Shown here: positions 5,363-53,684 of the stretch, one piece after another
How the letters are laid out: every line of letters begins with the position of its first letter
Position numbering within the stretch: the stretch's first letter is position 1
DNA from: a virus
Strand: one strand, 5' to 3'
DNA: 64,000 bases
Virus record (IMG/VR): IMGVR_UViG_3300019752_000001
Made by a program: the position numbers and the translations under genes
Notes under the pieces: generated by a model
What the model was told of the DNA's origin: nothing
The model's input: only the letters and a program-made list of their open reading frames with translations
Database searches by the model: none

Positions 5363-5378
5363 CAAGAAGGTTAAAAAC

Positions 5379-5684
5379 ATGTCACACGTACCAAGCAACT
5401 CACCAGAGGATATTGCAGAACAAATTCGTAAGGTTCTGCATGATAAGAATCCAAATGTGATAGGAAAAGGTAAAGCTTTTATTCCAGATATTGAGAAAGC
5501 TTTATCTATGTCTCCTGCACTAGAGTTTGGGTATGAACCTTTTGAACATGTTGAGTTCATGGGTTGGGAGCAAGACTACTTCCATTACTGGGAACCTTAT
5601 GATAAGGTTGGATGGTTGTGTATCTACGGAGACAAGCATTATGGTAATTACACAATTCAATGGGTGAAGGAGAAAGAAGAATGA
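5379..5684 (+). CDS. hypothetical protein
   Basis: ORF in operon. Confidence 0.55.
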   Translation: MSHVPSNSPEDIAEQIRKVLHDKNPNVIGKGKAFIPDIEKALSMSPALEFGYEPFEHVEFMGWEQDYFHYWEPYDKVGWLCIYGDKHYGNYTIQWVKEKEE

Positions 5685-5908
5685 ACGTTTACGATTACGA
5701 AGTTAAGAATTATACTAAGAGGCAAGTTCAACCCATGTTTCCTTGGGATGAAACAGTAGATATGTTTTGTGTGTCTGTATCAGAAGCGGATAGTGAAAAT
5801 GGTTCACCTAAACAAGGTGATATGATAGCCTTCAACCCTAACAACATGGTTGATAAATGGTTGGTGGCAGAGAAGTTTTACAAAGATAATTATCAGGAGG
5901 TGATGTAA
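5681..5908 (+). CDS. small conserved-type phage protein
   Basis: ATGA overlap; GSPKQGDMIAFNP...DKWLVA motif. Confidence 0.55.
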   Translation: MNVYDYEVKNYTKRQVQPMFPWDETVDMFCVSVSEADSENGSPKQGDMIAFNPNNMVDKWLVAEKFYKDNYQEVM

Positions 5909-5911
5909 TAT

Positions 5912-6076
5912 ATGAGTGTAAAAATTAACAACGGTAAAGATAAAGTGGGTATTCATACATTATCCTGGAAAGAACTCCTGACTATGTACACGAGTAACAA
6001 CACCACGAAGAAGGATAAACAGAAGATTAATAATACTATGTTCAAGAACTTTCCAGAGGGCTATCAAGAAAACTAG
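5912..6076 (+). CDS. 54-aa hypothetical protein (below ORF-track cutoff)
   Basis: GGAGGTGA RBS, MSVKINNGKD...YQEN*. Confidence 0.45.
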   Translation: MSVKINNGKDKVGIHTLSWKELLTMYTSNNTTKKDKQKINNTMFKNFPEGYQEN

Positions 6077-6159
6077 AAGGCACCACCTTACATTGAAACA
6101 CATAGAAAGTTGTAAAGGGAGATACTCCGTCTCCCTAATTAGAAGGATGATAAACATAT

Positions 6160-6570
6160 ATGACGCACTATATCGGTATGCGGGATTTGATGATTACTAA
6201 GTTTGCTGCAGAGGAAGATTGTCCTGAGGAAGTGGCTGCAGCAGCTTTTGAAGGTGACTTAGAAGCTCTTTCAGACCTATTGAATACACACTACCCAGAT
6301 TACCTAGCTAGCTTGCTGGAGCATGGAGGGCTTGATACGCAGCGTGAATATTTCCCTCTGTTTGGTAATCGTATTTCAGCCTTTACCGGAGAACAATGGG
6401 AGGGTACTTACTGGGTAGGTAATCTACGGAGTGATCTAGGCTTCACTACAGAGCATCAAGTGTATAAGGATATGGCTACAGAACAGCGCTATAATGGAGC
6501 TTTTGATGAGCTTAATCAGCAGCACTTGAATAGTGTTACAGCAACTGGTGAAATGGGAGAGGAAGTTTGA
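6160..6570 (+). CDS. hypothetical protein
   Basis: ORF coupled to nrdB. Confidence 0.55.
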   Translation: MTHYIGMRDLMITKFAAEEDCPEEVAAAAFEGDLEALSDLLNTHYPDYLASLLEHGGLDTQREYFPLFGNRISAFTGEQWEGTYWVGNLRSDLGFTTEHQVYKDMATEQRYNGAFDELNQQHLNSVTATGEMGEEV

Positions 6571-7586
6571 AGTGGAAAAATCAGATCCCTGTTATGACTC
6601 CGAAAACAACTTTTACAGTTGATTACCCAGAGGCTGTAGAGTTTGCTGACCAACAAGCCTTAGTATTCTGGCCACACTCTGAGGTTAAGGTTCATAAGGA
6701 TAAGCACGATATCTTAGTAGGTATGACTGAAGCTGAACGTCATGCTACGACAACAACGTTGAAGCTCTTTACAAAGTACGAACAGATAATTGGTGATGAG
6801 TTTTGGCTTAACTTTGTATACAAAACTTTTCCTCGACCAGCAGATATACAACCTATGGCTGCCTTATTCGGGGCTATGGAGTTGCAAGTTCATGCTAAGT
6901 TTTACAGCAAACTTAATGAAGAACTTGGTCTAGCTACTGATGAGTTTTATGAAGAGTACTTAAAAGATCCAGACTTAAAAGATCGTATTGCGCATCTGGA
7001 GAATATACTTAAAACTGGTGATCCTCTGGAGAAACTTGGAGCGTTCACTTTCGGAGAGGGGGCTGTACTCTATACAAGTTTTGCATTTCTTAAACACTTC
7101 CAGTCAGTTGGTAAGAATAAACTGTTGAATGGTGTAAGCGGTATTAACTTTAGTAGTCGTGATGAGAACCTTCATAGTGAAGCCGCAGCTTGGCTGTTTA
7201 AGCAGACTAAGAAGGAGTTGATGGAGGCTAAACTGATTGATGAAGATTATTTAAGCTTCCTGGAACAAACTATCACAGATACTGGATTCCAAGTGTATGA
7301 ACATGAAAAAATCATAATCAAGAAACTGTTTGAGAAAGGAGAGATTGAAGGTATAACCCCTAAGCAGTTGGAGTATTTCTCACAGAGTCGTATTAACCTT
7401 TGTATGCGTAATTTGGGTTACACAAATATCTTCCGTGTAGATTACAACCCTATTGCTGATTGGTTTTATAAAGGTATTAACGGTTATCAAATGCAGGATC
7501 ATTTCAATAGTCAAGGTAATCAGTATACACGTGGTTGGTCTGAACCAGATTTCCCATTCAACCCACCACCTAAGATGTACGTCTAG
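6567..7586 (+). CDS. nrdB: ribonucleotide reductase class Ia beta subunit
   Basis: ELQVHAKFYS, EGAVLYTSF, SRDENLH di-iron motifs. Confidence 0.93.
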   Translation: MKWKNQIPVMTPKTTFTVDYPEAVEFADQQALVFWPHSEVKVHKDKHDILVGMTEAERHATTTTLKLFTKYEQIIGDEFWLNFVYKTFPRPADIQPMAALFGAMELQVHAKFYSKLNEELGLATDEFYEEYLKDPDLKDRIAHLENILKTGDPLEKLGAFTFGEGAVLYTSFAFLKHFQSVGKNKLLNGVSGINFSSRDENLHSEAAAWLFKQTKKELMEAKLIDEDYLSFLEQTITDTGFQVYEHEKIIIKKLFEKGEIEGITPKQLEYFSQSRINLCMRNLGYTNIFRVDYNPIADWFYKGINGYQMQDHFNSQGNQYTRGWSEPDFPFNPPPKMYV

Positions 7587-7600
7587 GAGTAGTATAAAGA

Positions 7601-9289
7601 ATGTCTAATGTATATGATAAGTTGAGTAAAGAACGGAAAAAGATGCAATCCGAAGGAGTTATGCCTGAGTGGTATACTACTGGAGGTTGGCAGTTATTTA
7701 AAAACAAATACCTATACCAAGCTGATAACCCAAAAGAACAGTACCAGCGTATTGCATCGACATTAGCTGTGCATACAAAAGACCCAAACACGTGGAAGGA
7801 GAAGTTTTTTAATCTCCTCTGGAAAGGGTGGCTTAGTCCATCAACTCCTGTACTGTCTAACACGGGGACTTGTCGAGGGCTTCCTGTGGCTTGTTCAGGT
7901 AATTACTTATCTGATTGTATGTATGAGATATATAAAGGGCGTTCTGAGAATGCTATGCTTACAAAGTATGGCTTTGGCACAGCAAGCTACTTAGGTGATA
8001 TTCGCTCACGAGGTAGTGTTATCTCTGTAGGAGGTACAGCTGAAGGAGTTATCCCTATCATCGAGGGTGCTCAGAAGGATATGGAATATGTTGCTCAGGG
8101 TACAGCTCGTCGAGGTAGCTGGGCAGGGTATCTTCCTATCGATCATGGGGACTTTGACGAGGTTTGTACATACCTTGAACATAACCCTGATGGTTGTAAT
8201 ATTGGGTGGAACATCTCAGATGGGTTTGTAGAGAATCTTATGCGGGGTGATGAAGAGGCTGTACGTCGCTTCCAGAAGGCTATGAAGACTAAGATGATCA
8301 CAGGTAAAGGTTATTTCTTCTTCCCAGACAAAGCTAACAGGCAGCGACCTGAGATGTATGTTGATAAAGGTTTAGATGTTAAGGCTTCTCAGTTGTGCAA
8401 TGAAATATCACTACATTGTGATGATAATCATACATACACTTGCACCTTGTCATCAATGAATATTGCAAAGTATGATGAGTGGAAAGATACTGAGGCTGTT
8501 CAGGAAGCTATTGTCTTCTTAGACTGTGTTGTACAGGAGTTTATTGAGCGAGCTAAGAATATTCCTGGTTTGGAGAAGGCTGTAGACTTCACACGTAAAG
8601 GTCGTCCTCTTGGGTTAGGTGTTTGTGGTTTGCACACGTATTATCAGCAGAATATGATTCCGTTTGAGAGCTATGATGCGTTCCTATTCAATCGGGAACT
8701 GTTCAAAGGTATTAGATCAGAGGCTGATAAAGCCACTCGCTACATCGCTGAAACGTGGGGTGAGCCAGAATGGTGTAAGGGTTATGGTGTTGCTAATACT
8801 CACCTGTTGGCTGTAGCCCCTACAAAATCTACAGCACTTATTATGGGAGGTATCTCAGAAGGTATTAACCCTGATGCTGCAATGGTTTACACACAACGTT
8901 CAGCAGGAGGAGAAGTAGATCGAGTTAATCCTATCCTGTTAGGTATTATGAAGGAACGAGGAGTTAACACTAAGAAGGTCAGAGAAGATATACGGGACAA
9001 GATGGGAAGTGTTCAGCATGTTGATTGGCTATCTCCTCAAGAGAAGTATGTGTTCAGAACAGGCTTTGAAATGTGCCAGTTCAATATACTTCAGCAGGCT
9101 GGTGATCGAGGTGAGAGTTTGGATCAGTGGCAGAGTTTGAACTTGTTCTTTGAAGGAAGTGCAGATGGTGAGTATATTTCTGCAGTGCATACTAAAGCTT
9201 TTCTTGACGAACGCATCATTGGGCTCTACTATGTGAACTCGACAGCTGGTGTACAAGCTAGTAAAGATGAATGTGAGGCTTGCCAATGA
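7601..9289 (+). CDS. nrdA: ribonucleotide reductase class Ia alpha subunit (short, no ATP cone)
   Basis: SPSTPV, SQLCNEI, LGLGVCG, AVAPTKST, GLYY, C-terminal ECEACQ. Confidence 0.95.
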   Translation: MSNVYDKLSKERKKMQSEGVMPEWYTTGGWQLFKNKYLYQADNPKEQYQRIASTLAVHTKDPNTWKEKFFNLLWKGWLSPSTPVLSNTGTCRGLPVACSGNYLSDCMYEIYKGRSENAMLTKYGFGTASYLGDIRSRGSVISVGGTAEGVIPIIEGAQKDMEYVAQGTARRGSWAGYLPIDHGDFDEVCTYLEHNPDGCNIGWNISDGFVENLMRGDEEAVRRFQKAMKTKMITGKGYFFFPDKANRQRPEMYVDKGLDVKASQLCNEISLHCDDNHTYTCTLSSMNIAKYDEWKDTEAVQEAIVFLDCVVQEFIERAKNIPGLEKAVDFTRKGRPLGLGVCGLHTYYQQNMIPFESYDAFLFNRELFKGIRSEADKATRYIAETWGEPEWCKGYGVANTHLLAVAPTKSTALIMGGISEGINPDAAMVYTQRSAGGEVDRVNPILLGIMKERGVNTKKVREDIRDKMGSVQHVDWLSPQEKYVFRTGFEMCQFNILQQAGDRGESLDQWQSLNLFFEGSADGEYISAVHTKAFLDERIIGLYYVNSTAGVQASKDECEACQ

Positions 9290-9528
9290 ATGAAGAAGTG
9301 GGATATACCATTTACAGTAAGAAGTTTTGTCCTTGGTGTGATAAAGCTAAAATTATGTTGCATGTTGAAGGGAAAGACTTTATAGTAGTTGACTGTACAG
9401 ATAGTGACGAACCTCGACAACACTTGCTTGATGAAGGTAAGAAGACTGTACCACAGATCTTCAAAGGTGATGAGTATGTTGGTGGTTTTGAACAACTGTT
9501 CAATATGAAACACTCAATTGGTTTGTAA
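9286..9528 (+). CDS. glutaredoxin
   Basis: CPWC, TVPQIF, YVGGF; follows nrdA. Confidence 0.9.
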   Translation: MNEEVGYTIYSKKFCPWCDKAKIMLHVEGKDFIVVDCTDSDEPRQHLLDEGKKTVPQIFKGDEYVGGFEQLFNMKHSIGL

Positions 9529-9542
9529 ATTAGGAGAAACAC

Positions 9543-9911
9543 ATGACCACACAAAACACTCTACCAGAAAACTTGGTAGCTGTATTAGTTGTTTGGGAAG
9601 TAGTTCCTGAAGAGGTGAGACTATACAGCATCGTTATGGAGAAATCCTTGTATGAAGAACTTTCCGTAGCTAACGGGAAATATGCAAACTGTGTGGGTCT
9701 TTCTGAAGAGGAAGAGGCAGCCCTTTCCTACATCAGCTGGGCACTCCTTGATGAACCTTATGAAGGCTACCTAGCACACATGGCTGAGGAAGGTGTGGAA
9801 GCGGAGGTAGCTTGTAAGTGGAAGGATACACAGATTAACACTTATGAAATTAACCCTCCTCTTGGTTCCTTGTACTTCAACCATATTATTCAGACAGGCT
9901 TCCTCCTCTAA
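9543..9911 (+). CDS. hypothetical protein
   Basis: GGAG RBS. Confidence 0.55.
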   Translation: MTTQNTLPENLVAVLVVWEVVPEEVRLYSIVMEKSLYEELSVANGKYANCVGLSEEEEAALSYISWALLDEPYEGYLAHMAEEGVEAEVACKWKDTQINTYEINPPLGSLYFNHIIQTGFLL

Positions 9912-9935
9912 GGAGGAAGCTTTACAGGAGGCTAT

Positions 9936-10391
9936 ATGATAGACGCTTTCACTGGTTGGTTCAGCCAACACAGTACAACTCCACGTGTACAGCACTGTAA
10001 TCGTTGTGCTGAAGCAGATGCAGCTATACCAGGTATCGTAAAACAGATGACTGAGGCTGCTATCGAGATGGTTAAGTTACAGGAAGAGAACAAATACTTA
10101 AAACTAACTATTCAACGGCTAGAAGGAGACAACTGAATGAGCGATAACCTAACTAAAGTTGTTTGGGAAGTAGATGAAGAAACTCAGACAGTTAAGCAGG
10201 TAAATATCTCTGTGGGAAGGGAAATGGGTGTGTGGAACACACAGATACACGATTTAACAGAAACAGGGCCAATGTGGTATTACGCTGAAACCGAAGCAGC
10301 TGCATGGAAAGCTTGGGAGCTGAAAGTGGAATCTCAGCTTGAAGAGCTTGAGAAGCTACTCTATGAAACTATTTACCGGAGAAACACATGA
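9936..10391 (+). CDS. two small hypothetical proteins (9936-10136, 10137-10391)
   Basis: RBS and coupled ORFs. Confidence 0.5.
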
Positions 10392-11500
10392 CAACAAACT
10401 TCCCACCTCTTTACAAAAAGTCAGCAGCTAGCGGAAAAGTTAACTGTTGGAAGGTATCAGTACAAGGTGACACAATTACTGTTGAACAGGGTCAAGTTGG
10501 AGGTGCTACACAGACCTACCCAACAACCTGTGAAGGTAAGAACTTAGGAAGATCTAATGAAACCTCCCCTTCTGAACAGGCTATTCTGGAGGCTCAAAGT
10601 AAGTGGAACAAGCAAGTTAAGAAGGGCTACGTACAAGACTCTTCAGGTGGTGGTGATATTCTCCTACCTATGAAGGTGAGTACATATCAAGGTAATGAAC
10701 AAAAAGTAGTGTTCCCTTGCATTTTGTCACCTAAACTTAACGGTGTGAATGCTGAAGCTCGTCTGTTAGAGGATGGTAGTATTGTCCTTCTTAGTCGTGG
10801 AGGAGAAGAATACCTCCTACCGCCTCACTGGGAAGGGGAGCTTCGTGAAGCCTTCTCAGCGTTGAATACAACAAGTCTTAATGGTGAAGTGTATAAGCAT
10901 GGAGAGTGGCTACAGGACATTACAGGAGCTATGAAGAAGCCTAACAAACTTACTGAGGAGTTGGAGTTTCATATCTTTGATCTTCCATGTTCATCAGAAA
11001 ATTATGATTACCGTTCAACTGGACTTGGTATACTTTTTGGTATGTTTTCTTTCACATATTTAAAAGAAGTTGATTGGTTCGTAGCAGAGAACCACAAACA
11101 CATCGAGAACTTTCACAAAACCTGTGTGGAAGATGGCTACGAAGGTATTATCATCCGTAACCTTGAAGGTTTGTACAGATACAACACACGTAGTAATGAT
11201 GTGTTCAAGTATAAGGTAGCCTTGTCAGAAGAGTTTAAAATCACCTCTTACTTCGAGGATAAGCTTGGTCATGCTGTGTTCTGGTGTGAGTCTAAAGGCG
11301 GGACATTTAAGGCTAAGCCTAAAGGTACTGATGCACACCGTAAGGCTATCAGAGCAGAAGCTGATGAGTGGATTGGTAAATATATGACTGTTGAATTTGA
11401 GAGCTACAGTAAGGGTGGTAAGCCTACTAAACCTGTTGGTATTGGATTACGGAAAGGAGAATGGAATGAAGAGACTGAAGAGTTTATTCCTTCAGAGTGA
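10388..11500 (+). CDS. ATP-dependent DNA ligase with N-terminal WGR-like domain
   Basis: KLNG (motif I), LNGEVY, FHIFD, GYEGIIIR, KYK; OB-fold C-terminus. Confidence 0.9.
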   Translation: MTTNFPPLYKKSAASGKVNCWKVSVQGDTITVEQGQVGGATQTYPTTCEGKNLGRSNETSPSEQAILEAQSKWNKQVKKGYVQDSSGGGDILLPMKVSTYQGNEQKVVFPCILSPKLNGVNAEARLLEDGSIVLLSRGGEEYLLPPHWEGELREAFSALNTTSLNGEVYKHGEWLQDITGAMKKPNKLTEELEFHIFDLPCSSENYDYRSTGLGILFGMFSFTYLKEVDWFVAENHKHIENFHKTCVEDGYEGIIIRNLEGLYRYNTRSNDVFKYKVALSEEFKITSYFEDKLGHAVFWCESKGGTFKAKPKGTDAHRKAIRAEADEWIGKYMTVEFESYSKGGKPTKPVGIGLRKGEWNEETEEFIPSE

Positions 11501-11507
11501 GGAAATA

Positions 11508-12069
11508 ATGTACGCAGAAGCCCTCTGCAGAAGGTTATGGTGGAAGTTGTGTTTTGTGTATGAAGTCTATAACGAATATGGGTACGTTCTCCCTCGTTCT
11601 TGGATGATGGCTAAAGATGCTCAATCAAAGTATGGATATCTTTATTCCTACAAATACGCTGTTAAAGATTACGTGGAGGACATCTGATGTGTACAAACAC
11701 CAATGTGGAAATTGAACAAGTGTCTGTTGAACAAGTGTTAAACAACCCTGAGAAGTATGTGGCAGAAGCTTTATGCAACCCTAACCTGAGCTACTCAGAA
11801 ACTATTGAGTTGTTCAGCCAGTGGATTGGAGCAGCGTATGATGAGGGAAGGATTGAGGGGGCACAACAATGACCTCTCCTATCAAACCTATCCAGAGATA
11901 CACATTCACCTACGTTAACAAGGATGATGAAGGTAATGTTCAACACATCATATCCTGCCTTGCTTCAGGAACAACTATCAAAGCTGCTAAGATGTCAGCT
12001 CTTGAGACTATTAAGTGTAAGGAGGGTGGTGAGCAAGCTACCCTGAACAGTCTGAAACGTAACAAATAA
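11508..12069 (+). CDS. three small hypothetical proteins (11508-11687, 11687-11872, 11869-12069)
   Basis: Translationally coupled ORFs with RBS. Confidence 0.5.
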
Positions 12070-12079
12070 ACTTAATGAC

Positions 12080-12130
12080 AAAGCCTCTACCAATGACTAT
12101 ACTGTTGTTGGTAGAGGCTTTTTTTTTTTT
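12080..12130 (+). terminator. rho-independent terminator
   Basis: AAAGCCTCTACCAA...TTGGTAGAGGC followed by a T12 run. Confidence 0.85.
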
Positions 12131-12143
12131 GTGGGAGAAATAT

Positions 12144-12359
12144 ATGAAAGTGATTTACAACGGCGATGAAGGAACTTGGTTAGGTGTTCATTGTGATGGG
12201 TTGGTAGAGTATCATGTAATACTTTTCTCAACAGGAGACTATACAGGGCAGGAAATGTTGTGCTATGATATTCCTAAATTGAAGTGGGTGGATAAGAAGC
12301 CTGCAGAGATGCAGACTGTGGCATTTGCTGACACATTAAATAAGTATGAACTATTTTGA
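12144..12359 (+). CDS. hypothetical protein
   Basis: GGGAG RBS; true start lies after the terminator. Confidence 0.5.
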   Translation: MKVIYNGDEGTWLGVHCDGLVEYHVILFSTGDYTGQEMLCYDIPKLKWVDKKPAEMQTVAFADTLNKYELF

Positions 12360-12371
12360 GGAGAAAACACA

Positions 12372-13604
12372 ATGATTGAGATTGTAGTTAACGAAGAAGA
12401 TATGTCTGTCAGTGCTGGAGAACTTACTTACAAGTTTGTTAAGAAACTCCACTGGGCGGAAATTGCGAGACGGGTTACAGGAGTTGACTACATAAAGACT
12501 TCAGCCCCTGTTACAAAGAGAGATTGTTTTTCAGATGCTGCACATACAGACAGGAAGGTTAAGTGGGACGCCTCAATAAAACGTTGGGAGGCTATACTTG
12601 GGTGTCATCCTGTTAAGTTCGGTAAGATGTTCAACGGAGTTGTTTATCGATTGTGGATAGGGGAACACAAGGATCTCCTATACAAATACTGCTACCGAGG
12701 TTATGGGTTTGACCAAGAAAGCTTGAGACTTTTCTACAACAACAAAGAGCTAGCTTTGCAGATGGTTGAAGATAAGCAATACAATATACTCCCTTTTCTT
12801 TTTGAAGGTGTGTTTGATCAGGAAGGGTTTAACAGTATTAATGATTTTAAGAATGAACTAGGAAAGGGGTTATGGAAAAAGATAGTTAACAACTCTGTAA
12901 CTAGGAATAAACACATGGCGGCCTGTGTTGATATGGTTAGTGTGCACAGGAAGCGTGAGTTCTTTTCTGTAGCTAATACCCTCCCTTCTTCATATTTACA
13001 ACACGCAAAATTTGTGTATCGTTTCTCTGTGTTTGTTGCCAACAATAGCAAAGGTTTTCTTACCAAGAAGAAGAGTTATCATCTAAGAGGTAAAATACGA
13101 GATTTGATAAACTTAGCACGAGATACAGAAAATATGGCCAACAGGTTAGGTCTTCCTTACAACAACTCCTGGTCAGTTAAACGGATGAAGGCTGAACATG
13201 ATAAATACTCCAAGATAATTACAGCTCAGAAGAATCCCAAAGACCCTTTCTCACGTATTGGTTGGGCACCTAAAGAGATAGTTTGGGAGGAAGGGTTTAC
13301 AGCAACACTTTTAACCTCTCCTTTTGATGTGGCTATGGAAGGAAAAGATATGCGACATTGCGTTGCAGGGTATATTGGTAGTGTTGAAAAAGGAGAGTAC
13401 TTAATCTACTCTATAACAAATGCTGAAGAGGAAAAGGTTAGTACACTGGGCCTGTCTCGTGCCCGTACTGTTACATCGCAGGTACTATGGAGTATTGACC
13501 AGCACTACTTGAAAGGTAATACCTCTGTGAAGTGCGACATTCAAAAAGTTTTAGCCTTAACAACTGTTGATCAAGTGAACAACAACTGGAGAAAAACACA
13601 ATGA
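12372..13604 (+). CDS. PcfJ-domain protein
   Basis: EGKDMRHCVAGY...IYSI...STL. Confidence 0.8.
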   Translation: MIEIVVNEEDMSVSAGELTYKFVKKLHWAEIARRVTGVDYIKTSAPVTKRDCFSDAAHTDRKVKWDASIKRWEAILGCHPVKFGKMFNGVVYRLWIGEHKDLLYKYCYRGYGFDQESLRLFYNNKELALQMVEDKQYNILPFLFEGVFDQEGFNSINDFKNELGKGLWKKIVNNSVTRNKHMAACVDMVSVHRKREFFSVANTLPSSYLQHAKFVYRFSVFVANNSKGFLTKKKSYHLRGKIRDLINLARDTENMANRLGLPYNNSWSVKRMKAEHDKYSKIITAQKNPKDPFSRIGWAPKEIVWEEGFTATLLTSPFDVAMEGKDMRHCVAGYIGSVEKGEYLIYSITNAEEEKVSTLGLSRARTVTSQVLWSIDQHYLKGNTSVKCDIQKVLALTTVDQVNNNWRKTQ

Positions 13605-13843
13605 ACAAATTGACAACACGTACTACCCTTCTGGGGGCTTCGTTAATCACACTGATAGGGACTTTGACAGGATGTAATACAATGACTGTACAACGAGCTT
13701 CAGTAGGTATTCAATACTCTTCCCCGCCACCTATCAGGCAGATAATCATCACAAATGGACGTAGGTTGTCCTCAGATGTTATCCTGCCTAGTAGACCTGT
13801 ACAGATCATTCCTCGTAGGATCTACAGAGAGTATATCTACTGA
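13601..13843 (+). CDS. putative lipoprotein
   Basis: Hydrophobic N-terminus with LTGC lipobox. Confidence 0.5.
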   Translation: MNKLTTRTTLLGASLITLIGTLTGCNTMTVQRASVGIQYSSPPPIRQIIITNGRRLSSDVILPSRPVQIIPRRIYREYIY

Positions 13844-13990
13844 TGTGTGAGATAGATGATGAAAAGGAAAGCTTTGAAAAGGTTAGTGGTAAGGATGACC
13901 TGTTTGTTATAGGGGTGTATTTAGGAGGGTTTATTCTTAGTAGCTCTCTATACACTCTCTGGTTGTTAAGTGTTACGTGATGGAGGGGTT

Positions 13991-15265
13991 ATGAAGACTT
14001 CTATAAAAGAACTAAACAGTTACCTTGTTGGAGGTGCTGTAAGGGATAAACTCCTTGGTGTAGTTCCTAAAGATAAAGACTATGTAGTTGTTGGAAGTAG
14101 TGTTGCTGAGATGCTACACTTAGGGTTTAAACAAGTGGGTGCAGACTTTCCTGTATTCTTACACCCTGAAACAGGTGATGAATGGGCACTGGCTCGCACA
14201 GAGAAGAAAACTGGACAAGGTTATACTGGATTCACCTGGGACAGTAGTGATAGTGTCAGCCTCAAGCAGGACTTACTTCGTCGTGACCTAACCATAAACG
14301 CCCTCGCCATATCCTCAACAGGAGAGGTTATAGAACCTTATGTAGGCTGTATTGATGATGTACACAACAAAGTGTTGAGGCATACATCAGCTGCCTTCTC
14401 AGATGACCCTGTGCGTGTTCTGCGAGTTTGTCGATTATTATCTAGGTATGGGGAAGGTTGGACTATTTCCAGAAAGACTGAGTATATGTGTGACAACATA
14501 GTTGAATCAGAGGAATGGTCGCATTTGACAGCAGAAAGGGTTTGGAAGGAAACTGAAAAAGCTCTACAGGAGAAACACACTGACAAGTATTTTAAGCAGA
14601 TCCTGTACAACGAAGCGGTGGTTAATTTCCAGTGGTTCTCAGAACTTGCTCCTCTTTGTTTTGTACCTCAACCTGTTGATCATCACCCAGAGGGAGATGT
14701 ACTAACACACACATTAAAATCTCTGGAACAGGCTAGTGTATTAGGTGCTTCTCCTGTTGAGAAGTGGGCTGTACTATGTCATGATCTAGGGAAAGCGGTA
14801 GCATATTCTGCCAGAGGGAACCTATACGGGCATGAAGCAGCTGGACTGCCCCCAGTAAACTCTCTATGTGATCGGTTGAAGGTTCCTAACAAATACAGAG
14901 AGCTTGCATTGAAAGTGTGTGAGTGGCATACCTTGTGCCACAGGGCTTTCGAGTTATCTCCTAAACGTATTGTTAAGTTATTCAATGACCTTGACGCATT
15001 CAGGCGGCCTGATCAACTGTTCAGCTTCCTTCTGTGTTGTGAGGCAGATGCTAAAGGTAGAGGTAAAGGAGAAGATACAACATATTCTCGAATGTACTAT
15101 GCTCAGAAAGATTACTTGAAAGCTTGTTATGAGAGTTGTCTTGAGGTAGATTGTAATAAGATTGCTAACGAGGTGAGGTGTAAAGACTTTAATAATCCTG
15201 GACAAAGAATTAAACAGCTTATCCATCAAGCTAGAATTAAACAAGTTAAGAGGTGTATAAAATGA
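13991..15265 (+). CDS. cca: multifunctional CCA tRNA nucleotidyltransferase with HD domain
   Basis: YLVGGAVRD, DKDYVVVG, DLLRRDLTINA, DDPVRVLR, HHPEGD...HT, LCHDLGK. Confidence 0.95.
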   Translation: MKTSIKELNSYLVGGAVRDKLLGVVPKDKDYVVVGSSVAEMLHLGFKQVGADFPVFLHPETGDEWALARTEKKTGQGYTGFTWDSSDSVSLKQDLLRRDLTINALAISSTGEVIEPYVGCIDDVHNKVLRHTSAAFSDDPVRVLRVCRLLSRYGEGWTISRKTEYMCDNIVESEEWSHLTAERVWKETEKALQEKHTDKYFKQILYNEAVVNFQWFSELAPLCFVPQPVDHHPEGDVLTHTLKSLEQASVLGASPVEKWAVLCHDLGKAVAYSARGNLYGHEAAGLPPVNSLCDRLKVPNKYRELALKVCEWHTLCHRAFELSPKRIVKLFNDLDAFRRPDQLFSFLLCCEADAKGRGKGEDTTYSRMYYAQKDYLKACYESCLEVDCNKIANEVRCKDFNNPGQRIKQLIHQARIKQVKRCIK

Positions 15266-15750
15266 CTTCACAGAAACTACGAGCCTACTTCTTCCAGAAT
15301 ATGTATGTAGGTGGTGTTCAAGCAGGTATTCAAGCTCAACATTGTACAGCTCGGTTGTTTACAAAGTATCCACACAACTCAATTGAGAATGACACCATAC
15401 ATACTTGGGCAAATGAACACGAAACTACTATCCTTTTAAACGGAGGTATGTCTAAGGATCTGCGTGAGATCATGATGTGTCTCTGCACATTACCCTACCC
15501 ATGGGCTACCTTCTCAGAGTCTGATGAGGCTCTTGCTGGAGCAATTACAAGTGTCGGTGTAATATTGCCTGAGCATATCTGGATGCATAGAAAGTGGATT
15601 GAGGTACAGGGCCTTTCTGACGATGTAATCTACGCTGACCATGAGTATGTTATTCTGCCAGGGGATGGTATGAGGACAAGGGAGTACAAATACAGCTCCG
15701 GTGAACAAAACTTGACAAATCTCTTATCAACAAAACGATTAATGACTTAA
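15262..15750 (+). CDS. peptidyl-tRNA hydrolase Pth2-like protein
   Basis: GIQAQHC, TILLNGG, FSE.D...AITSVG pattern; coupled to cca. Confidence 0.6.
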   Translation: MTSQKLRAYFFQNMYVGGVQAGIQAQHCTARLFTKYPHNSIENDTIHTWANEHETTILLNGGMSKDLREIMMCLCTLPYPWATFSESDEALAGAITSVGVILPEHIWMHRKWIEVQGLSDDVIYADHEYVILPGDGMRTREYKYSSGEQNLTNLLSTKRLMT

Positions 15751-15760
15751 GGAACACAGA

Positions 15761-16861
15761 ATGAACCTACCAGATAAAGTTCTACGTAACAAAGCTCGTG
15801 AGCAGGTGACAGAGGCTTGCATTCCAGACCTGATTGTATCCCATATGTCAGGTAGTCATGCGTATGGAATGAACACACCTACCTCTGATGTAGATGTACG
15901 AGGTATCTTCTGTGCCCCTCGTAAGTGCATCTGCACACCATTCAATAACATTAATGAGCAGACTATTCCTTCTATGGAAGACGCTAAAGTGTATGAGGTG
16001 TCCCGATTCATCCAAATGTACACAGATGCTAATCCAAACATCTTAGAAACTTTGTGGGTGGATGAAGAAGATATTCTTACAGGCTCCGAGGCTTACACAC
16101 TACTACGTAACCACAGACAACAACTTTTATCTAAGAAGGTGGCATTTACCTACTCAGGCTATGCACTATCACAACTCAAACGTGTTAAGGGTCATAAGAA
16201 GTGGATTAACAATCCCTGTCCAGTAAACCCACCTAAGCAGAGCGACTACGTAAGCCTTGTACAAAACTTTACAGATGATAAGATTCTTCCTTCTGAGTTC
16301 TCATTAATTAACTATAAAGAAGGTTGTCGTCTAATCCCGTTTGGTAATAATTTGTTTGGTTTGTATGTTGGTGGTAAAGGGGGTGACTACAACACACATA
16401 CAGATGATGGTATGCTCAACATGGTATTTGTTGATGAGAGTCGTGTTGACTGGGGTGCTCCTCAGATGATTGTCAAATGGAACAAGGAAGATTGGGCTAG
16501 GGAGAAAGAAACTCATAAGAACTACTGGACTTGGAAACGTAACCGTAACCCTATACGTGCAGCTCTGGAAGAAGAACATGGTGCAGATATGAAACATGTA
16601 TCACACTTAGTACGCCTACTCCGTAGTGTTGAGGAGATCTTGACAGAAGGTGTTGTCAAGGTAAGACGACCAGACGCTGAAGAACTCCTTGCAATCCGTA
16701 ACGGAAGCTGGCAGTATGATGACATTATCAAGTGGGCTGAGGATAAGGATAAACTAATCCGCACAACACTGTACAACCAAAGTGAGCTTCGTAATAAGCC
16801 TAACCTGAACCTGGCAGGAAAACTTATGATGACTATTCAAGATATATATTGGGAGAAATGA
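15761..16861 (+). CDS. Pol-beta superfamily nucleotidyltransferase (RlaP / Nuc-transf-like)
   Basis: GSHAYGMNTPTSDVDVRGIF, NPNILE, KHVSHLVRLL, LLAIRNG. Confidence 0.85.
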   Translation: MNLPDKVLRNKAREQVTEACIPDLIVSHMSGSHAYGMNTPTSDVDVRGIFCAPRKCICTPFNNINEQTIPSMEDAKVYEVSRFIQMYTDANPNILETLWVDEEDILTGSEAYTLLRNHRQQLLSKKVAFTYSGYALSQLKRVKGHKKWINNPCPVNPPKQSDYVSLVQNFTDDKILPSEFSLINYKEGCRLIPFGNNLFGLYVGGKGGDYNTHTDDGMLNMVFVDESRVDWGAPQMIVKWNKEDWAREKETHKNYWTWKRNRNPIRAALEEEHGADMKHVSHLVRLLRSVEEILTEGVVKVRRPDAEELLAIRNGSWQYDDIIKWAEDKDKLIRTTLYNQSELRNKPNLNLAGKLMMTIQDIYWEK

Positions 16862-32321: not shown

Positions 32322-32739
32322 GTTTGTTCCTCTTCTTAAACCAGAACACAATAGGGGTTGTCTTGACAACAATCTGACCAAACCTCTCAGCAGTTCTGAA
32401 GTTTACACTACTATTACGTCCACGCTCAACTTGCTTCTCAAGCTCCTTCCTAAATTCCTCCACAGAAAAACACACTCTTGGATAAGTTGCAAGGAGCACA
32501 TGACGAAACCATATTATCCAGTGTATCTATAAATCTTCATGCTGCATATCTCCTGTAAATCTCACCTCTGTCTAGTGAATATTCTTCCGTTCATGCACAG
32601 GAACTATCTCAGACTTCCTATGTATAGGATGAAAGTGGTCAACATGCCAGCCCTTTTAAGGAAGCTGACAACCACAATACCAGCAGATTCCGTTAGACTT
32701 ATTCCATACCAGCTGCCTAGTTTTCTTAGATATTGCCAT
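32305..32739 (-). pseudogene. HNH endonuclease, disrupted
   Basis: MAISKKTRQLVWNKSNGICWYCG..*KGWHVDH...CAPCNLSK with two in-frame stops and frameshifts. Confidence 0.75.
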
Positions 32740-32742
32740 TAG

Positions 32743-33148
32743 TTAGTTTCCTCTGATCCCTGTACTGCTGATACAACATAGGCTTTCTGGACAAGGAAGA
32801 TACATAACATCTACCCCCCAAACCTGTTGAGCGTGACGAGTCATAGCTTGCTCATATTCGAAGTCTTTTGTGTCACGTAATCCTCTTACTACAACCTCCA
32901 CGTTTTCAGACTTCAAGTAATCACCGAGATCAGAATCTTTTCTGTAGGTAACTTGGGTGTTATGTAAATGTGACACCTCCTCCCAAAAGTAATCTGCCCT
33001 ATCCTCTCCAGAGGTATCGTAAACCTTATCAGGGTTATCCGCAACAACCACTAACAGTTCAAAACCCAACCAGTTACACATCTCTACTACCCCAGAGGTG
33101 CCCTTCGTGTACAGGGTTAAAACTCCTTATAAATGCAACCTTTTTCAT
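32743..33148 (-). pseudogene. coaD: phosphopantetheine adenylyltransferase (CoaD), split by a +1 frameshift
   Basis: ATG 33148 gives MKKVAFIRSFNPVHEGHLW (HxGH); removing one G from the G4 run (33090-33093) joins VVVRGLRDTKDFEYEQAM...ISSTGIR. Confidence 0.8.
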
Positions 33149-33663
33149 AGTAGATCTCCTCTATGCTCCACAAACCACTCCGTACATTTCTGCTTGAACT
33201 CCTGAGAAGAGGAAGTATCATTAATCAAGACCCAATCAGCGACCTCTTCCCTTTGCTCCCTAGCTAATTGTGTATTGTGGATTCTCTGAGTCAGTGACAC
33301 ATTTCTGTGTGTATCCCGAAGTATAGCTGCTTCCTGGTTAGCTTTACGCTCAACCGTTAGAATCTTATAAGAAGGCTTTATATCAAAACCCTCTAAGTTA
33401 GGGATGACACAAACTTCTGGAGTGTTAGAGGTTAAGTACATATCAAAGTGTTGCATCAACCACCTTTCGTATTCCTTCCAGTTAGGATGAATGAAGGCTA
33501 CAGGACTACTGCCAAACCAACCTTTAAAAGTGTAGTGATGTAAAGCTGTTCCTTTCATTTCTTCGTGGAACCAGTCATCAACATCTAAGCATTTGTACCC
33601 CAACTCTTCAGCAGCTTGCAATAGTGTACTTTTACCACAAGCTATACCTCCAGTTACAATCAA
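33145..33663 (-). CDS. coaE: dephospho-CoA kinase (CoaE)-like
   Basis: IVTGGIACGKST, LDVD, RD.......RIHNTQL, ADWVLIND; ATGA-coupled to coaD. Confidence 0.7.
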   Translation of the reverse strand: MIVTGGIACGKSTLLQAAEELGYKCLDVDDWFHEEMKGTALHHYTFKGWFGSSPVAFIHPNWKEYERWLMQHFDMYLTSNTPEVCVIPNLEGFDIKPSYKILTVERKANQEAAILRDTHRNVSLTQRIHNTQLAREQREEVADWVLINDTSSSQEFKQKCTEWFVEHRGDLL

Positions 33664-33906
33664 TATGTTAAGGTCTACTTTGTCAATAACCTAAGTTCGT
33701 TCTGTACATCTCCACTAATTATATTAACTCGACCTACTAATTATAGGTAGCTAAACAATGATTATTTGTACTCAGCCTTAGCTGGTGATTTCTGCGATGT
33801 GTTTTTCTTAACTCTTGGAACCTATTATAAACACATAGATACACATTGCAACAACTATTTTTAACTTTATCATTCAACGAACTACCGGCGATTACACCAA
33901 GGCATT

Positions 33907-35867: not shown

Positions 35868-37166
35868 TCAGAAAGCCCTTGTCAACACTAAATTATCATG
35901 TGTACCCAACACCTCCCACCAAGCTTCTCTGAATGTGTCAACAAGCAACTGCTCATCTTCCTGCTTAACTACAGCTGAATCATGATACGGAAGGAGAGGT
36001 TTGTCAAGGGCTGTGAAGGTGTTTATTACATTCATGAGGATGGAGGAATCTAAGTATTGTAGTTGTTGCCAAAGGAGAGAGGATGAACCAGGATATAAAG
36101 AGTTGCTTAGTAACACTTCAGAGATGCGATGATTAGTTTTTAACAAAGAGTTTACTACATCAGTTGGACACAACACATCATAATTTACTGTGGGGTAGTC
36201 TCTATCATCCACTGACTGCTTTATTTGGTTCAGTGTAAACCACCCGCATGACCTTTCAGCTTTCTTAAGGTTTTCACAATAGAGGAGCGACATAAAGAAC
36301 TTCTTACACAACCCTCTGATATCCTCGTACCCTCCCTGTACAAGCCCTTGTTCAACCTTATAAGGTTCAAAGTGTTCCGGTAAGTTTATTCCTAAATGGC
36401 AGGCTATCAGGTTTGGGTGAAGACACTTAATATCCACCTCAACAGTTCTCTGTCCATCAATAGTGATAGTTGGTCTTAGCTTAGAAGGGAGAGATTGAAA
36501 CCCTCCACAACTATAAACTCTTCCTGCTAGCGTTATCTTCTCTGAGAATATACGTCTGTAACAAGGACTGCAAGAGTAGTCCCCCACTTTGACTGTATGA
36601 CCACTTAACATATTGTTATAATCTTTCATATCCTGCTTAAGCTGACCAATACCTTTAGGCTTGACACCTGTAACCTGCTTACCTTTCAAGTCGCGTATAA
36701 CCACTTCCTCTTCATTCCCTCTACTGGCCCCTTCAGAGCTAACAGGAAGCTCTGAGAAGAGATTTATAAGAGGTTGTAGAGGTTTTATAGAGGACTTGCA
36801 ATAGTCCTCCTCGTGCAGGTAATAGCCTTTGTAGAGGGTTATTAATCCCAACTCTTCAAGTAATGGTAAGAGTTCAAGCATCTTCTTGTATGAAAGTTTC
36901 TGTTTGTACTTTTTGTTTGCTTCTGAGTATCTTACAGGTTTCAGAGAGATATTAAAGAAATCTCCTCCGTATCTCAAGGTTTTAGATATAGCTGTAACTA
37001 GGCACCAAACTTCATTATCGTACTTAGAACCTACATTAAGTAATTTTGTAACTTCTTTGTGTACATACAAGAAATAAGTACTTCTCTTTATCTGTAGATT
37101 GAATGGTTCAGAAGTAGCTCTAATCTTTATCTGTTGTTCTTTCTCCAGGGTCAGGAGTTCTATCAT
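35868..37166 (-). CDS. minimal A-family (PolA / T7-RNAP-like) nucleotide polymerase
   Basis: GRVYS, motif A EVDIKCLHP, motif B RGLCKKFFMSLLY, LQYLDS, motif C LPYHDSAVV; no exonuclease domain. Confidence 0.7.
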   Translation of the reverse strand: MIELLTLEKEQQIKIRATSEPFNLQIKRSTYFLYVHKEVTKLLNVGSKYDNEVWCLVTAISKTLRYGGDFFNISLKPVRYSEANKKYKQKLSYKKMLELLPLLEELGLITLYKGYYLHEEDYCKSSIKPLQPLINLFSELPVSSEGASRGNEEEVVIRDLKGKQVTGVKPKGIGQLKQDMKDYNNMLSGHTVKVGDYSCSPCYRRIFSEKITLAGRVYSCGGFQSLPSKLRPTITIDGQRTVEVDIKCLHPNLIACHLGINLPEHFEPYKVEQGLVQGGYEDIRGLCKKFFMSLLYCENLKKAERSCGWFTLNQIKQSVDDRDYPTVNYDVLCPTDVVNSLLKTNHRISEVLLSNSLYPGSSSLLWQQLQYLDSSILMNVINTFTALDKPLLPYHDSAVVKQEDEQLLVDTFREAWWEVLGTHDNLVLTRAF

Positions 37167-50764: not shown

Positions 50765-52477
50765 CTACATAACACCAAGCTTACTACGGATCTCAGATAG
50801 AGTGTATTGGTTGTAGAGTTCACCATCCTCAAACACAACCTTCAGCTCCCCTTGAGCTTCCTGTTCAACAGTTTGGTTATCATATGTCACATACATCTCC
50901 TGTCCATCTTCTCCCTTCTCAAGCTCAACACGTAACAATCCTTCACGAGAAGCCTTAGACATATCGGTCTTAGGAGTTTTGTTCATACCAAAACCTTCAC
51001 CACCTACTACGGAGTAACCTCCCTTCAACGCAATACCATAAGAATCTCGTGAGGAGTTTTTCAGCTTAGCCCAACTACCAACACCAAGCAATAGGTTTGT
51101 TACACAGAATCCTAATTCTTCCATACGGCTATAGATAGCTTCTTGCATCTCCATTGTAATAGCTTCTCCGTAGATCAGTCCAACAGAAGGATGCAACACT
51201 TTATAACCTTTCTCGTTAACCACCCCTCCAAACACTTCCCAGAGTATTTGTAAACTACCCTTCACTTCTTCTTCTGAGATTTCCTTGTAACTGAGGTTTC
51301 CATCAACTTCATAATATTTACCTGAAGTTTTGCACCGGAACACCTGATAACCTCGTTGTATTAATGATGGGGTGATGAGGTTGTTAAGACCCCGTCCTTG
51401 TAGGTAAGGTCTGAAGTTAGGAATATCTTTATACCGTTCACCACAAATAACTTCTAGTGGGGTTTTAGGGCTGCTATCAGGACGGAACACAAGCTTACCA
51501 GGCAAACCTAAAGAGTCTGGCTCACGGGACACAATTACAGGTTCAAGCTTAGCAGCTAGCTCTGAGATAACGTAATAGTAATCTTTACTATCTGCTACAT
51601 AACTCAGAATGCCACGTGGGTAAACATCTGTCAGGAGACGCTTAAGACTCTCTTCTTCACTTCCGTAATAATGGATACCTTGTGTGGTTGTTGCGTGTTC
51701 AGTTGCATTAACAGAGACGCCAACCCATTCCTTATCACTATCTGCACCATAATATTGTTCAAGTCCATCAATAGCCCATAAAGTGTCTGTTCCAACACCA
51801 AACATAAGGTGTGCTACTCCAGACATCATAGCATCCTGATCACCACGCAGACCACGAGCTGAGAAGTCATGGTTAGCAATAGGCAACCAAGCAGCAGCTG
51901 CTTCTGGAGTAGCAGTCTTCTCAGCCCAGCGCTTACTTGTCAGGAAATACTGTTGAGCTACGGATGCAGAGTTACACATTGACCACACCATACAACTCAG
52001 GAATGTCTCACAATTGTTTGTCAACCAGAAGAAGCGATCATCTGTATTAACTACTGTGAAGAATGGTGTGTTCTTATTAACCAAACTACCTTCAGGGAGG
52101 GACTTAATACGCAGAGGAAGATAACCTAGATCATGTAGGTCAGCCATAGCAGCAATCTGTACATCTCCGTTGTCAGGGCCTACACAGTTTTTAACCCGAC
52201 GACGATAGGCATTGATAACTTTTTCTTTAGGCTGACTGAAGAATGTAGCATTCCAGTTATCCTTCAACATGTGTACAGCCAACTGAACACCCACCATCAC
52301 CATCTTATCGGTGTTGTTCTGAGGGATTGTGTGAGCCAGTCTGAAGTTACGAGCTGTACAGCTGCTGTACACTACCTCTGTTCCAGGGACATACTGTTCA
52401 ATATGACCTAGTTTATAAGCATCTGTCTTGTGAGCTTGAGAGATGGCGAAAATTGAATTGTTCATTGTGTTAATCAT
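50765..52477 (-). CDS. Nampt-family protein (probable NARP1 Namat)
   Basis: TDAYKLGH..QY, HDFSARG, GTDT, ATEH, VFRPDS, GLIYGEAIT. Confidence 0.9.
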   Translation of the reverse strand: MINTMNNSIFAISQAHKTDAYKLGHIEQYVPGTEVVYSSCTARNFRLAHTIPQNNTDKMVMVGVQLAVHMLKDNWNATFFSQPKEKVINAYRRRVKNCVGPDNGDVQIAAMADLHDLGYLPLRIKSLPEGSLVNKNTPFFTVVNTDDRFFWLTNNCETFLSCMVWSMCNSASVAQQYFLTSKRWAEKTATPEAAAAWLPIANHDFSARGLRGDQDAMMSGVAHLMFGVGTDTLWAIDGLEQYYGADSDKEWVGVSVNATEHATTTQGIHYYGSEEESLKRLLTDVYPRGILSYVADSKDYYYVISELAAKLEPVIVSREPDSLGLPGKLVFRPDSSPKTPLEVICGERYKDIPNFRPYLQGRGLNNLITPSLIQRGYQVFRCKTSGKYYEVDGNLSYKEISEEEVKGSLQILWEVFGGVVNEKGYKVLHPSVGLIYGEAITMEMQEAIYSRMEELGFCVTNLLLGVGSWAKLKNSSRDSYGIALKGGYSVVGGEGFGMNKTPKTDMSKASREGLLRVELEKGEDGQEMYVTYDNQTVEQEAQGELKVVFEDGELYNQYTLSEIRSKLGVM

Positions 52478-52815
52478 ACTTTGTTCTCCTGTTTTACGAA
52501 AATAGCGTGGAAATAATTACAGAAATCATAAGCTTCTGAGTTTACTACACCGGAAGAGGAACTGCTTAGTGTATACCCTTGAGCTAATAGTTCATTACAC
52601 TCCTTTTCAAACTCTGCTGGTGTTAATACGTCTACAACTTTTACAGAAGGTGTAGTTATGTCTTCCTGAACCTTCTCCTCAAAAACTGTTCCATCCTTAA
52701 CCCACTCCCAAGTTATATATCGGGGATTAACAGCTCCACAGTCACAAACCCAACCATTACGCCCTTCCATTACAGAACTCTTGCAGACATCACAAGAAAT
52801 AACTGAATGCCCCAT
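52474..52815 (-). CDS. Zn-ribbon hypothetical protein between the Prs and Nampt genes
   Basis: CxxC...CxC. Confidence 0.5.
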   Translation of the reverse strand: MGHSVISCDVCKSSVMEGRNGWVCDCGAVNPRYITWEWVKDGTVFEEKVQEDITTPSVKVVDVLTPAEFEKECNELLAQGYTLSSSSSGVVNSEAYDFCNYFHAIFVKQENKV

Positions 52816-52826
52816 AACTTTCTCCT

Positions 52827-53684
52827 TTAATATGTGTAGTTTAATTTCATCAGTTTGATACGTTCATCTTTGCAGTAACCAAACAAACTATCTGTTGTCC
52901 AGATGTCATCAACTCCTCCCTCAAAGATGTGATCAACTCCGTTAGGGAATATACCATGTACAACACAAAGTACAACCTTTGCAGCTCCCTTTTCCTTAAG
53001 CTTCTTTGCCAGAGCTATAAAGGTTCCTCCGTTATCACAGATGTCATCAAAGATATAACATGTTCGTCCCACCACTTCATCATCTTTACAATACACTTCT
53101 GTAGATGTGATTGCACCAGATACTACATCTCGCACTTTAGCTGCTTGTACTACACGGGATATACTGAGCTTCTTACAAACTTTCAAACTCTTCTTGCTAG
53201 CACCTGCGTCAGGGATAACCACAACGTCCTGATCAGAAATGATGTTATGGAAAGGTCTAAACACTTCTTCTTGCTTAACTTCAATGCAGCGAGCTAAGCA
53301 GGCTGTTGCCACATCTGAGTGGCTATCCACCACCATAACCAAGTCAAACTGCATAGCGTTGATTGCTTCACAGAATACCTTAATAGATAATGCTTCTCCA
53401 TTGTCCATAACACGATCCTGTCGAGCATATGGAATGTAGGGCATACGAAGCTTCATATGAGAGGGACGACACATACGAACTACAGCATCCTTCAGCATCA
53501 TAAGGATAATTAAATCCTCTGGCTTAGACATCTTAGCTTCAATCGTACAAGCCTGTCCACAGAAGACAGTAAAAGGAGGAAGAAGTTTTACATTAACCTC
53601 TCCTCCACTAAAGACTGAATAGGTGAACGGGATAGTTTGTGTCCCATATTGAATATCGAATCGTTCATTAACTCTTGTCATCAT
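52827..53684 (-). CDS. Prs-family pyrophosphokinase (probable NARP1 Adps)
   Basis: FSGGEVNV, MPYIPYARQDR, VDSHS, PDAGA, DDICDNGGTF. Confidence 0.9.
   Translation of the reverse strand: MMTRVNERFDIQYGTQTIPFTYSVFSGGEVNVKLLPPFTVFCGQACTIEAKMSKPEDLIILMMLKDAVVRMCRPSHMKLRMPYIPYARQDRVMDNGEALSIKVFCEAINAMQFDLVMVVDSHSDVATACLARCIEVKQEEVFRPFHNIISDQDVVVIPDAGASKKSLKVCKKLSISRVVQAAKVRDVVSGAITSTEVYCKDDEVVGRTCYIFDDICDNGGTFIALAKKLKEKGAAKVVLCVVHGIFPNGVDHIFEGGVDDIWTTDSLFGYCKDERIKLMKLNYTY

Follow-up and report, generated by a model that had tools for sequence, protein, structure and literature searches.

A CoaE-family kinase gene coupled to a probable coaD pseudogene in an aquatic virus, and its intact relatives in other phages

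Introduction

Do phages carry the means to finish coenzyme A (CoA), and what would such an ability serve? The question is raised by two overlapping genes in the virus record IMGVR_UViG_3300019752_000001, of which a stretch of 64,000 nucleotides, called the window throughout, was analysed here. The virus is an aquatic one of ~140 kb. On the minus strand of the window, a gene for a CoaE-family (dephospho-CoA kinase-like) protein is followed by one for a CoaD-family adenylyltransferase (phosphopantetheine adenylyltransferase, PPAT). A sequence-only reading of this DNA had proposed a candidate CoA pathway running parallel to an NAD+ pathway in the same genome. The enzyme families, the coupling of the genes and a frameshift in coaD that it described all stood up to closer analysis; the pathway as such did not, as it is probably not operating in this phage, whose CoaD is most likely dead. 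Related modules recur in some ten further lineages of uncultured phages. With moderate confidence we read the pair as a phage auxiliary metabolic cassette in which a divergent CoaE-family kinase, coupled to a minimal CoaD, would finish CoA in intact relatives, and which is decaying in the window. Among the auxiliary genes of viruses in snow viromes, coaD and coaE are reported to be abundant, alongside NAMPT, nadM and nadR (PMC11097641), and phage coaD and coaE are therefore not new as annotated auxiliary genes; the locus described here is a divergent and degenerate representative.

Organization of the locus and the break in coaD

The intact kinase gene (33145-33663, minus strand) encodes 172 amino acids from a TTG start, and its product is a member of a separate subfamily found in phages. 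It is coupled to the transferase gene (32743-33148, minus strand) by an ATGA junction, already recognized in the sequence-only reading, in which the kinase TGA (33147-33145) overlaps the transferase ATG (33148-33146). From this ATG, the first frame of the transferase gene (33074-33148) runs for 24 codons, reads MKKVAFIRSFNPVHEGHLWGSRDV and ends at a TAA (33076-33074). It holds the nucleotidyltransferase motif NPVHEGH, which contains HEGH as its version of HxGH; (T/H)xGH is invariant in all relatives. The remainder of the protein is encoded in the +1 frame (32743-33093; VVEM...RGLR..DFEYE..ISSTGIRGN), which is open from 33126, contains VVEMCNWLGFELLVVVADNPDK and RGLRDTKDFEYE ahead of the terminal ISSTGIRGN and closes with the stop codon at 32745-32743. 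The motifs HEGH, RGLR..DFEYE and ISS..IR that had been pointed out earlier are read in these two frames.

The +1 shift that is required for read-through was located at CTCTGGGG (33090-33097, minus strand), where the sequence CTC-T-GGGG has one base more than the intact relatives. This single-nucleotide break hides the N-terminus of CoaD, and gene callers report only an open reading frame (ORF) of 108 to 112 amino acids from the ATG at 33081. Omission of one base in CTC-T-GGGG yields a read-through protein of 134 amino acids (P0002), and its alignment with an intact relative of the same length (P0007) is free of gaps across the break. The match to the CoaD-family profile is split in the same way, with profile positions 1-18 in the first frame (E = 2e-7) and positions 15-132 in the second.

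Probable decay of the module in the window

The frameshift could be no lesion at all, either because it stems from an assembly or sequencing error at GGGG or because it is bridged by programmed +1 recoding, and a full-length, active CoaD would then be made. The position of the break in a short homopolymer speaks for this explanation, as do the gap-free, full-length alignment obtained upon removal of one base and the retention in the read-through protein of all eight catalytic or ligand-binding residues defined by mutagenesis. We nevertheless regard it as unlikely. The same sequence, GGGG and frameshift included, recurs in a second contig from another assembly (L007, JGI 3300019768), which is 100% identical over 4372 bp. 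None of the eight relatives that could be assessed has a frame break at the site; all stay in one frame, so recoding there is not conserved. By inspection, the site is also devoid of the known features of +1 shifts, namely a slippery P-site codon and a stop or rare A-site codon. Programmed frameshifting in particular was rejected as unlikely, the break being conserved in no relative and no shift site being recognizable.

A sequencing slip would also leave the surplus of substitutions at otherwise invariant positions unaccounted for. Seven other lineages share the same transferase residue at 32 positions, and the window copy departs from them at 6 of these (T7I, G8R, V31L, I78L, N106A and T114V); G8R falls in the nucleotide-binding loop. 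By the same measure, any other lineage departs at 0-2 positions and the window kinase at 1 of 33. Transferase distance divided by kinase distance gives 1.02 where the window is one member of the pair, compared with 0.85 +/- 0.06 for the remaining pairs. The kinase gene has changed at its start as well. Relatives begin with ATG-CTN (M-L-IVTGG) where the window has ATA-TTG, from which we conclude that the kinase ATG has been lost; the TTG is used as start. No Shine-Dalgarno sequence was evident in the start region (33663-33690, minus strand), which has a gene-free gap of 300 bp upstream.

Directly downstream of coaD lies an HNH homing-endonuclease pseudogene (32400-32739, minus strand) with an in-frame TAA and a frameshift. 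It reads MAISKKTRQLVWNKSNGICWYCGCQLP, then the TAA, then KGWHVDHFHPI..., and continues after the frameshift with ...SSCAPCNLSKS. The nonsense substitution in this neighbouring gene is not explicable as a homopolymer error. In a DNA comparison with cultured phages, ~80 bp of the HNH pseudogene gave the sole match of the region (Vibrio phages).

Taken together, the frameshift and the further signs in the sequence, among them the absence of the HD gene described below, point to decay rather than to a sequencing slip. With a frameshift that recurs in the second contig and with conserved residues lost, the window CoaD is most likely dead, and this phage therefore probably does not run the CoA pathway. 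A fitting annotation for the window would be a CoaE-like kinase gene followed by a coaD pseudogene.

The proteins belong to the CoaD and CoaE families

On profile and fold evidence the transferase belongs to the PPAT family, and adenylyl transfer to 4'-phosphopantetheine is its predicted reaction. P0002 scored 85.3 bits (E = 4e-24) with TIGR01510 (CoaD), under the cut-off of 103.3, and 33 bits with PF01467 (cut-off 21), while the models for nicotinamide and nicotinate mononucleotide adenylyltransferases (NMNAT and NaMNAT) gave E > 0.01. All 34 sequence matches in the PDB were PPATs, and a five-sequence transferase profile recovered the same 34 at E = 1e-19 to 1e-14, followed by TagD (5e-4), NadD (0.009), NadR (1lw7, 0.036), 6gye (0.065) and a phage NMNAT (9x6f, 0.22). 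The AlphaFold2 (AF2) model of an intact relative, which has a predicted local distance difference test score (pLDDT) of 89, matched PPATs at template modelling scores (TMq) of 0.80-0.89. Mutagenesis and structures have identified T/S10, H18, K42, R88, R91 and S128-130 as PPAT residues that bind the 4'-phosphate and ATP (PMC12784347). Their equivalents in P0002 (S9, H17, K41, R88, R91, S127, S128 and T129) are all present and are conserved in eight lineages.

With bacterial CoaD (TIGR01510; 1od6, 3x1j, 1b6t) the phage proteins share a Rossmann-like nucleotidyltransferase fold, HxGH, the K42 equivalent, RGxR, DFxYE and ISS(T), and the top sequence and fold matches are all PPATs. They differ in length (129-144 instead of ~160 amino acids), in sequence (25-33% identity) and in falling under the equivalog cut-off; the window copy differs further in being frameshifted and in the changes G8R, D11N and N106A. 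The phage chains stop shortly after the ISST motif and are thus without the C-terminal helices of the bacterial enzymes. Consistently, the PDB matches span chain residues 1 to ~133 of 155-170, and the model finishes after a short helix (126-130).

The kinase belongs to the dephospho-CoA kinase family as judged from its sequence and its model, and is predicted to phosphorylate the 3'-OH of dephospho-CoA. It scored 39.4 bits with Pfam CoaE (PF01121; cut-off 27) and 35.2 bits with TIGR00152, under the cut-off of 65.55. The Pfam CoaE score and the TIGR01510 match of the transferase exceed what chance would give. A five-sequence kinase profile matched 13 dephospho-CoA kinases in the PDB at E = 1e-18 to 5e-3, the best being 4zo4 over the full length. 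Five lineages show no variation in the P-loop GGIACGKST or in residues D27/D29, R116-D117, Q132, A142 and N148, all of which align to 4zo4. In the AF2 model (pLDDT 88.8) the three-domain dephospho-CoA kinase fold is predicted (TMq up to 0.79), and each of the 23 matches listed to rank 26 is a dephospho-CoA kinase (TM 0.56-0.79). Among viral models, the top match (TM 0.75) was a 'Dephospho-CoA kinase [uncultured marine phage]'.

Features held in common with bacterial CoaE (PF01121, TIGR00152; 4zo4, 1jjv, 1vhl) are the P-loop, a D-x-D after strand 2, the lid RD, the C-terminal Q...AD..N motifs, a profile match that covers the full length and the top-ranking fold matches. What sets the phage kinases apart is their length of 172-200 amino acids, an identity of 17-24%, a divergent central domain, a score under the TIGR00152 cut-off and their place in a separate subfamily of 11 clusters. 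These clusters were recovered at E <= 1e-30 when the kinase profile was searched against 1.84 billion representatives, and were followed by a sharp gap to ordinary CoaE at 60-85 bits; hence the kinase represents a small, distinct subfamily.

The sequence-only reading had itself named two other identities for these enzymes, and neither gained support. A deoxynucleoside monophosphate (dNMP) or nucleoside kinase is disfavoured by weak matches in sequence and fold when compared with those to dephospho-CoA kinases: Pfam dNK gave E = 0.044, viral dNMP kinases reached TMq 0.46-0.49 only, below 0.5 as against 0.75 for the phage dephospho-CoA kinase, and the dNMP, deoxynucleoside and adenylate kinases of the PDB rank under all dephospho-CoA kinases in the fold search. 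An NMN-preferring transferase of the NadR or NMNAT type is disfavoured in the same manner, with E = 0.009 to 0.2 for NMN adenylyltransferases compared with ~1e-19 for PPATs.

A broader form of this objection is that the likeness to CoaE and CoaD reflects ancestry only and that the pair acts on another substrate. The kinase might, for instance, act on nicotinamide riboside and the transferase on NMN, as a NadR divided in two and resembling NARP3 would, or the pair might make some other metabolite that is both adenylylated and phosphorylated. NARP3 indeed consists of a kinase and an adenylyltransferase (PMC13464706). Further points in favour are the equivalog cut-offs that both proteins miss, the absent C-terminal helices of the transferase, and the central substrate-binding region of the kinase, which is its most divergent part. 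In addition, one relative (L001, a 6.7-kb contig from Logan SRR11005199) carries its cassette inside an NAD cluster, in the order NMNAT-Nudix, an 80-amino-acid ORF, HD hydrolase, CoaE-like, CoaD-like, a 162-amino-acid ORF, NAD kinase and nicotinamide phosphoribosyltransferase (NAMPT). The structures of NadR and NMNAT, however, matched at no better than E = 0.036-0.22, and the kinase profile, searched against the PDB, gave nothing above noise for dNMP kinases or for the kinase domain of NadR. The PPAT-specific motif RGxR...DFxYE and the equivalents of the 4'-phosphate-binding Lys42 and Arg88 are invariant. L001 has its own NMNAT-Nudix and NAMPT, and no PnuC-like neighbour was present in any Pfam-scanned locus. 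We therefore consider another substrate quite improbable.

Intact relatives and a phosphohydrolase partner

Intact linked homologues in other phages are found in seven related metagenomic lineages (L001, L008, L009, L010, L018, L019 and L020; L001 is grouped with L002), in all of which an intact kinase gene overlaps an intact transferase gene. In L021/L022 the kinase is intact and the transferase is present but runs off the contig end; on the P0014 contig an intact kinase is followed by an ORF of 99 amino acids. The T4-like contig L017 (Logan SRR24079438, with rIIB, gp45, gp44 and RegA) has an intact kinase and a transferase remnant of 76 amino acids that is homologous over the first 35 residues only. 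The two lie at L017:3748-4499, and the homologous part of the truncated CoaD is fused to unrelated sequence. In L017, then, the transferase was lost for a second time and independently.

Outside the subfamily, an unrelated, uncultured 735-kb phage (LR756501.1) has coaD adjoining a canonical CoaE (110 bits), and Lak phages carry coaD among nucleotide-metabolism genes. Another uncultured phage of 462 kb (LR756500.1, L016:7995-9158) encodes a 388-amino-acid ORF with an N-terminal CoaD-like domain and ~240 residues without a Pfam match. Like the module described here, the viral coaD and coaE of snow viromes (PMC11097641), LR756501.1, Mx1 and the Lak phages place the last CoA steps on phage genomes, sometimes adjacent to each other or beside NAMPT or NMNAT. 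Whereas those are of ordinary length and bacterial-like, members of the present subfamily are shorter and more divergent, overlap in the order kinase then transferase and often have an HD partner. Two 'Bacteriophage sp.' CoaD matches (L013 and L014) were set aside as their DNA looks bacterial. Two kinases used as tblastn queries matched none of 50,697 phage records, and pattern scans of IMG/VR for kinase and transferase found nothing.

The HD partner is an HD-type metal-dependent phosphohydrolase. In six lineages (L001, L010 and L018-L021), about half of the total, its gene immediately precedes and overlaps that of the kinase, and the result is a three-gene cassette (HD gene at L001:2230-2838, L018:2137-2646 and L020:7483-8010). 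The protein has 170-200 amino acids and the motifs YH..H, HD, K.H and D.D; it matches phrog_19425 (E = 5e-26), and the closest protein-atlas clusters are named 'metal-dependent phosphohydrolase' (score 0.96). It matched no Pfam family (ACP_PD included), NCBIfam family or PDB sequence, and had no similarity in sequence to E. coli AcpH (hhalign probability 0.07%). The HD family also occurs in cultured phages of Rhizobium and Rhodococcus, with uninformative gene context. The gene is absent from the window, where a profile search for a remnant found none.

Possible roles of the cassette

In its intact form, the pair would most likely take 4'-phosphopantetheine through dephospho-CoA to CoA, and would add capacity or flux at the last two host CoA steps during infection. 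The HD phosphohydrolase may supply, trim or tune the precursor or the pathway. In the window phage only the kinase would still be able to act. The sequence-only reading had noted no coaA or coaBC in the window, and none was found among the Pfam-scanned ORFs, which comprise most, not all, of those of at least 250 amino acids. The occurrence of the kinase without the transferase in both the window and L017 suggests that most of the benefit comes from the kinase step, or else that this enzyme does something more. If the intact cassette does finish CoA, CoA joins NAD+ as a cofactor pool that phages top up.

Several points weigh against reading the cassette in this way. The two independent kinase-only cases, the window and L017, hint at a separate role for the kinase. 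Both proteins score under the NCBIfam equivalog cut-offs (85 compared with 103 bits, and 35 compared with 66 bits). The transferase is ~25 residues shorter at its C-terminus than bacterial PPATs, and this shortening might alter oligomerisation, regulation or substrate. As to decay in the window, the two contigs may be non-independent, which leaves room for a systematic assembly error at GGGG, and it is possible that the 112-amino-acid fragment is translated separately or forms part of a split enzyme.

A more elaborate scheme would give the HD protein the leading part. The cassette of HD protein, CoaE-like kinase and mini-CoaD would act on a host molecule that bears phosphopantetheine (holo-acyl carrier protein, CoA breakdown products or modified CoA), strip it or trim it, and rebuild CoA, either for takeover of the host or against a novel CoA-directed defence; the window would then hold a decaying remnant whose kinase still supplies the limiting step. 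We put this forward as a speculation that is itself quite unlikely.

The sequence-only reading had gone further in one direction and took the pair as a counter-defence that rebuilds CoA from its cleavage products (4'-phosphopantetheine) after a host defence has depleted CoA or blocked CoaD or CoaE. The pair would then parallel NARP1/2/3 for NAD+. Some of the gene neighbourhoods fit this idea. The cassette of L001/L002 sits between NMNAT-Nudix and NAD kinase plus NAMPT, the PPAT-like gene of Myxococcus phage Mx1 adjoins NMNAT and NAMPT, a NARP1-like pair lies 18 kb off in the window, and the HD phosphohydrolase of six lineages could release or trim a precursor. The linkage to NAD salvage, however, is confined to one of about ten related lineages (L001/L002), plus Mx1; the other settings are replication and early genes. 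The HD partner lacks sequence similarity to AcpH. Moreover, CoaD is broken in the window and truncated in L017, so that selection for a complete pathway is weak in at least two lineages. A search of the accessible literature found no CoA-depleting defence. No direct evidence came forward in support of this role, and we hold it to be very doubtful.

The reading of the pair as an auxiliary cassette for finishing CoA does place it near two known arrangements. NARP1, NARP2 and NARP3 are likewise two-enzyme phage modules that finish a cofactor of the adenine-dinucleotide type, and NARP3 follows the logic of a kinase plus an adenylyltransferase (PMC13464706). They use other enzyme families, whereas the CoaE-CoaD pair has no transporter partner, shows NAD linkage in one relative only and has a defence target that is hypothetical. 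The bifunctional CoA synthases of eukaryotes and of bacteria of the candidate phyla radiation (CPR), which are PPAT-DPCK fusions (DPCK, dephospho-CoA kinase; mouse 2f6r), also hold both activities together, and 2f6r is among the fold matches of the kinase. Here, in contrast, each activity has its own polypeptide, and the kinase gene comes first and overlaps the transferase gene. If the proposed function is correct, a CoA-centred conflict between phage and host would become testable through the HD partner that recurs beside the pair and through those cassettes that lie within NAD-salvage clusters. The 'CoA reconstitution pathway' being probably non-functional in the window phage, intact relatives (L001, L009 and L018-L020) are the better experimental subjects.

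NAD genes and genomic setting

The NAD+ pathway that had been noted in the same genome is borne out by the NARP1-like pair (50765-53684, minus strand). It consists of a phosphoribosyl pyrophosphate (PRPP) synthetase-like gene (52827-53684, 285 amino acids) and a NAMPT-like gene (50765-52477, 570 amino acids), between which lies an ORF without clear family (52474-52815, 113 amino acids), all on the minus strand. The NAMPT-like gene is ~50% identical to genes of Vibrio and Pseudoalteromonas phages, and PolA of the window is 54% identical to that of Aeromonas phages 2L372D and 4L372D. In Mx1 (L011, OR576727.2:124349-134651), the annotated PPAT gene is followed by a 211-amino-acid 'cytidylyltransferase', which shares 30% identity with the NMNAT domain of the L001 NMNAT-Nudix; NAMPT lies three genes past it and is followed by a second NMNAT.

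The genes adjoining the pair in the window had no Pfam matches, nor did a 432-amino-acid ORF (35868-37166, minus strand) at E <= 0.01. The 300-bp gap that precedes the kinase gene contains a sigma-70-like promoter sequence (TTGCAA-16-TATAAT, 33824-33851, minus strand) with agreement at 10 of 12 positions; it is only a candidate, as the count of such sites in the region is not above that in shuffles. A block of nucleotide and RNA-repair genes extends over 4529-16861 on the plus strand, with thymidylate synthase (4529-5362), the small subunit of ribonucleotide reductase (6567-7586), an ATP-dependent DNA ligase (10388-11500), a PcfJ-like gene (12372-13604), a PolyA_pol/CCA-adding-like gene (13970-15265) and RlaP (15761-16861).

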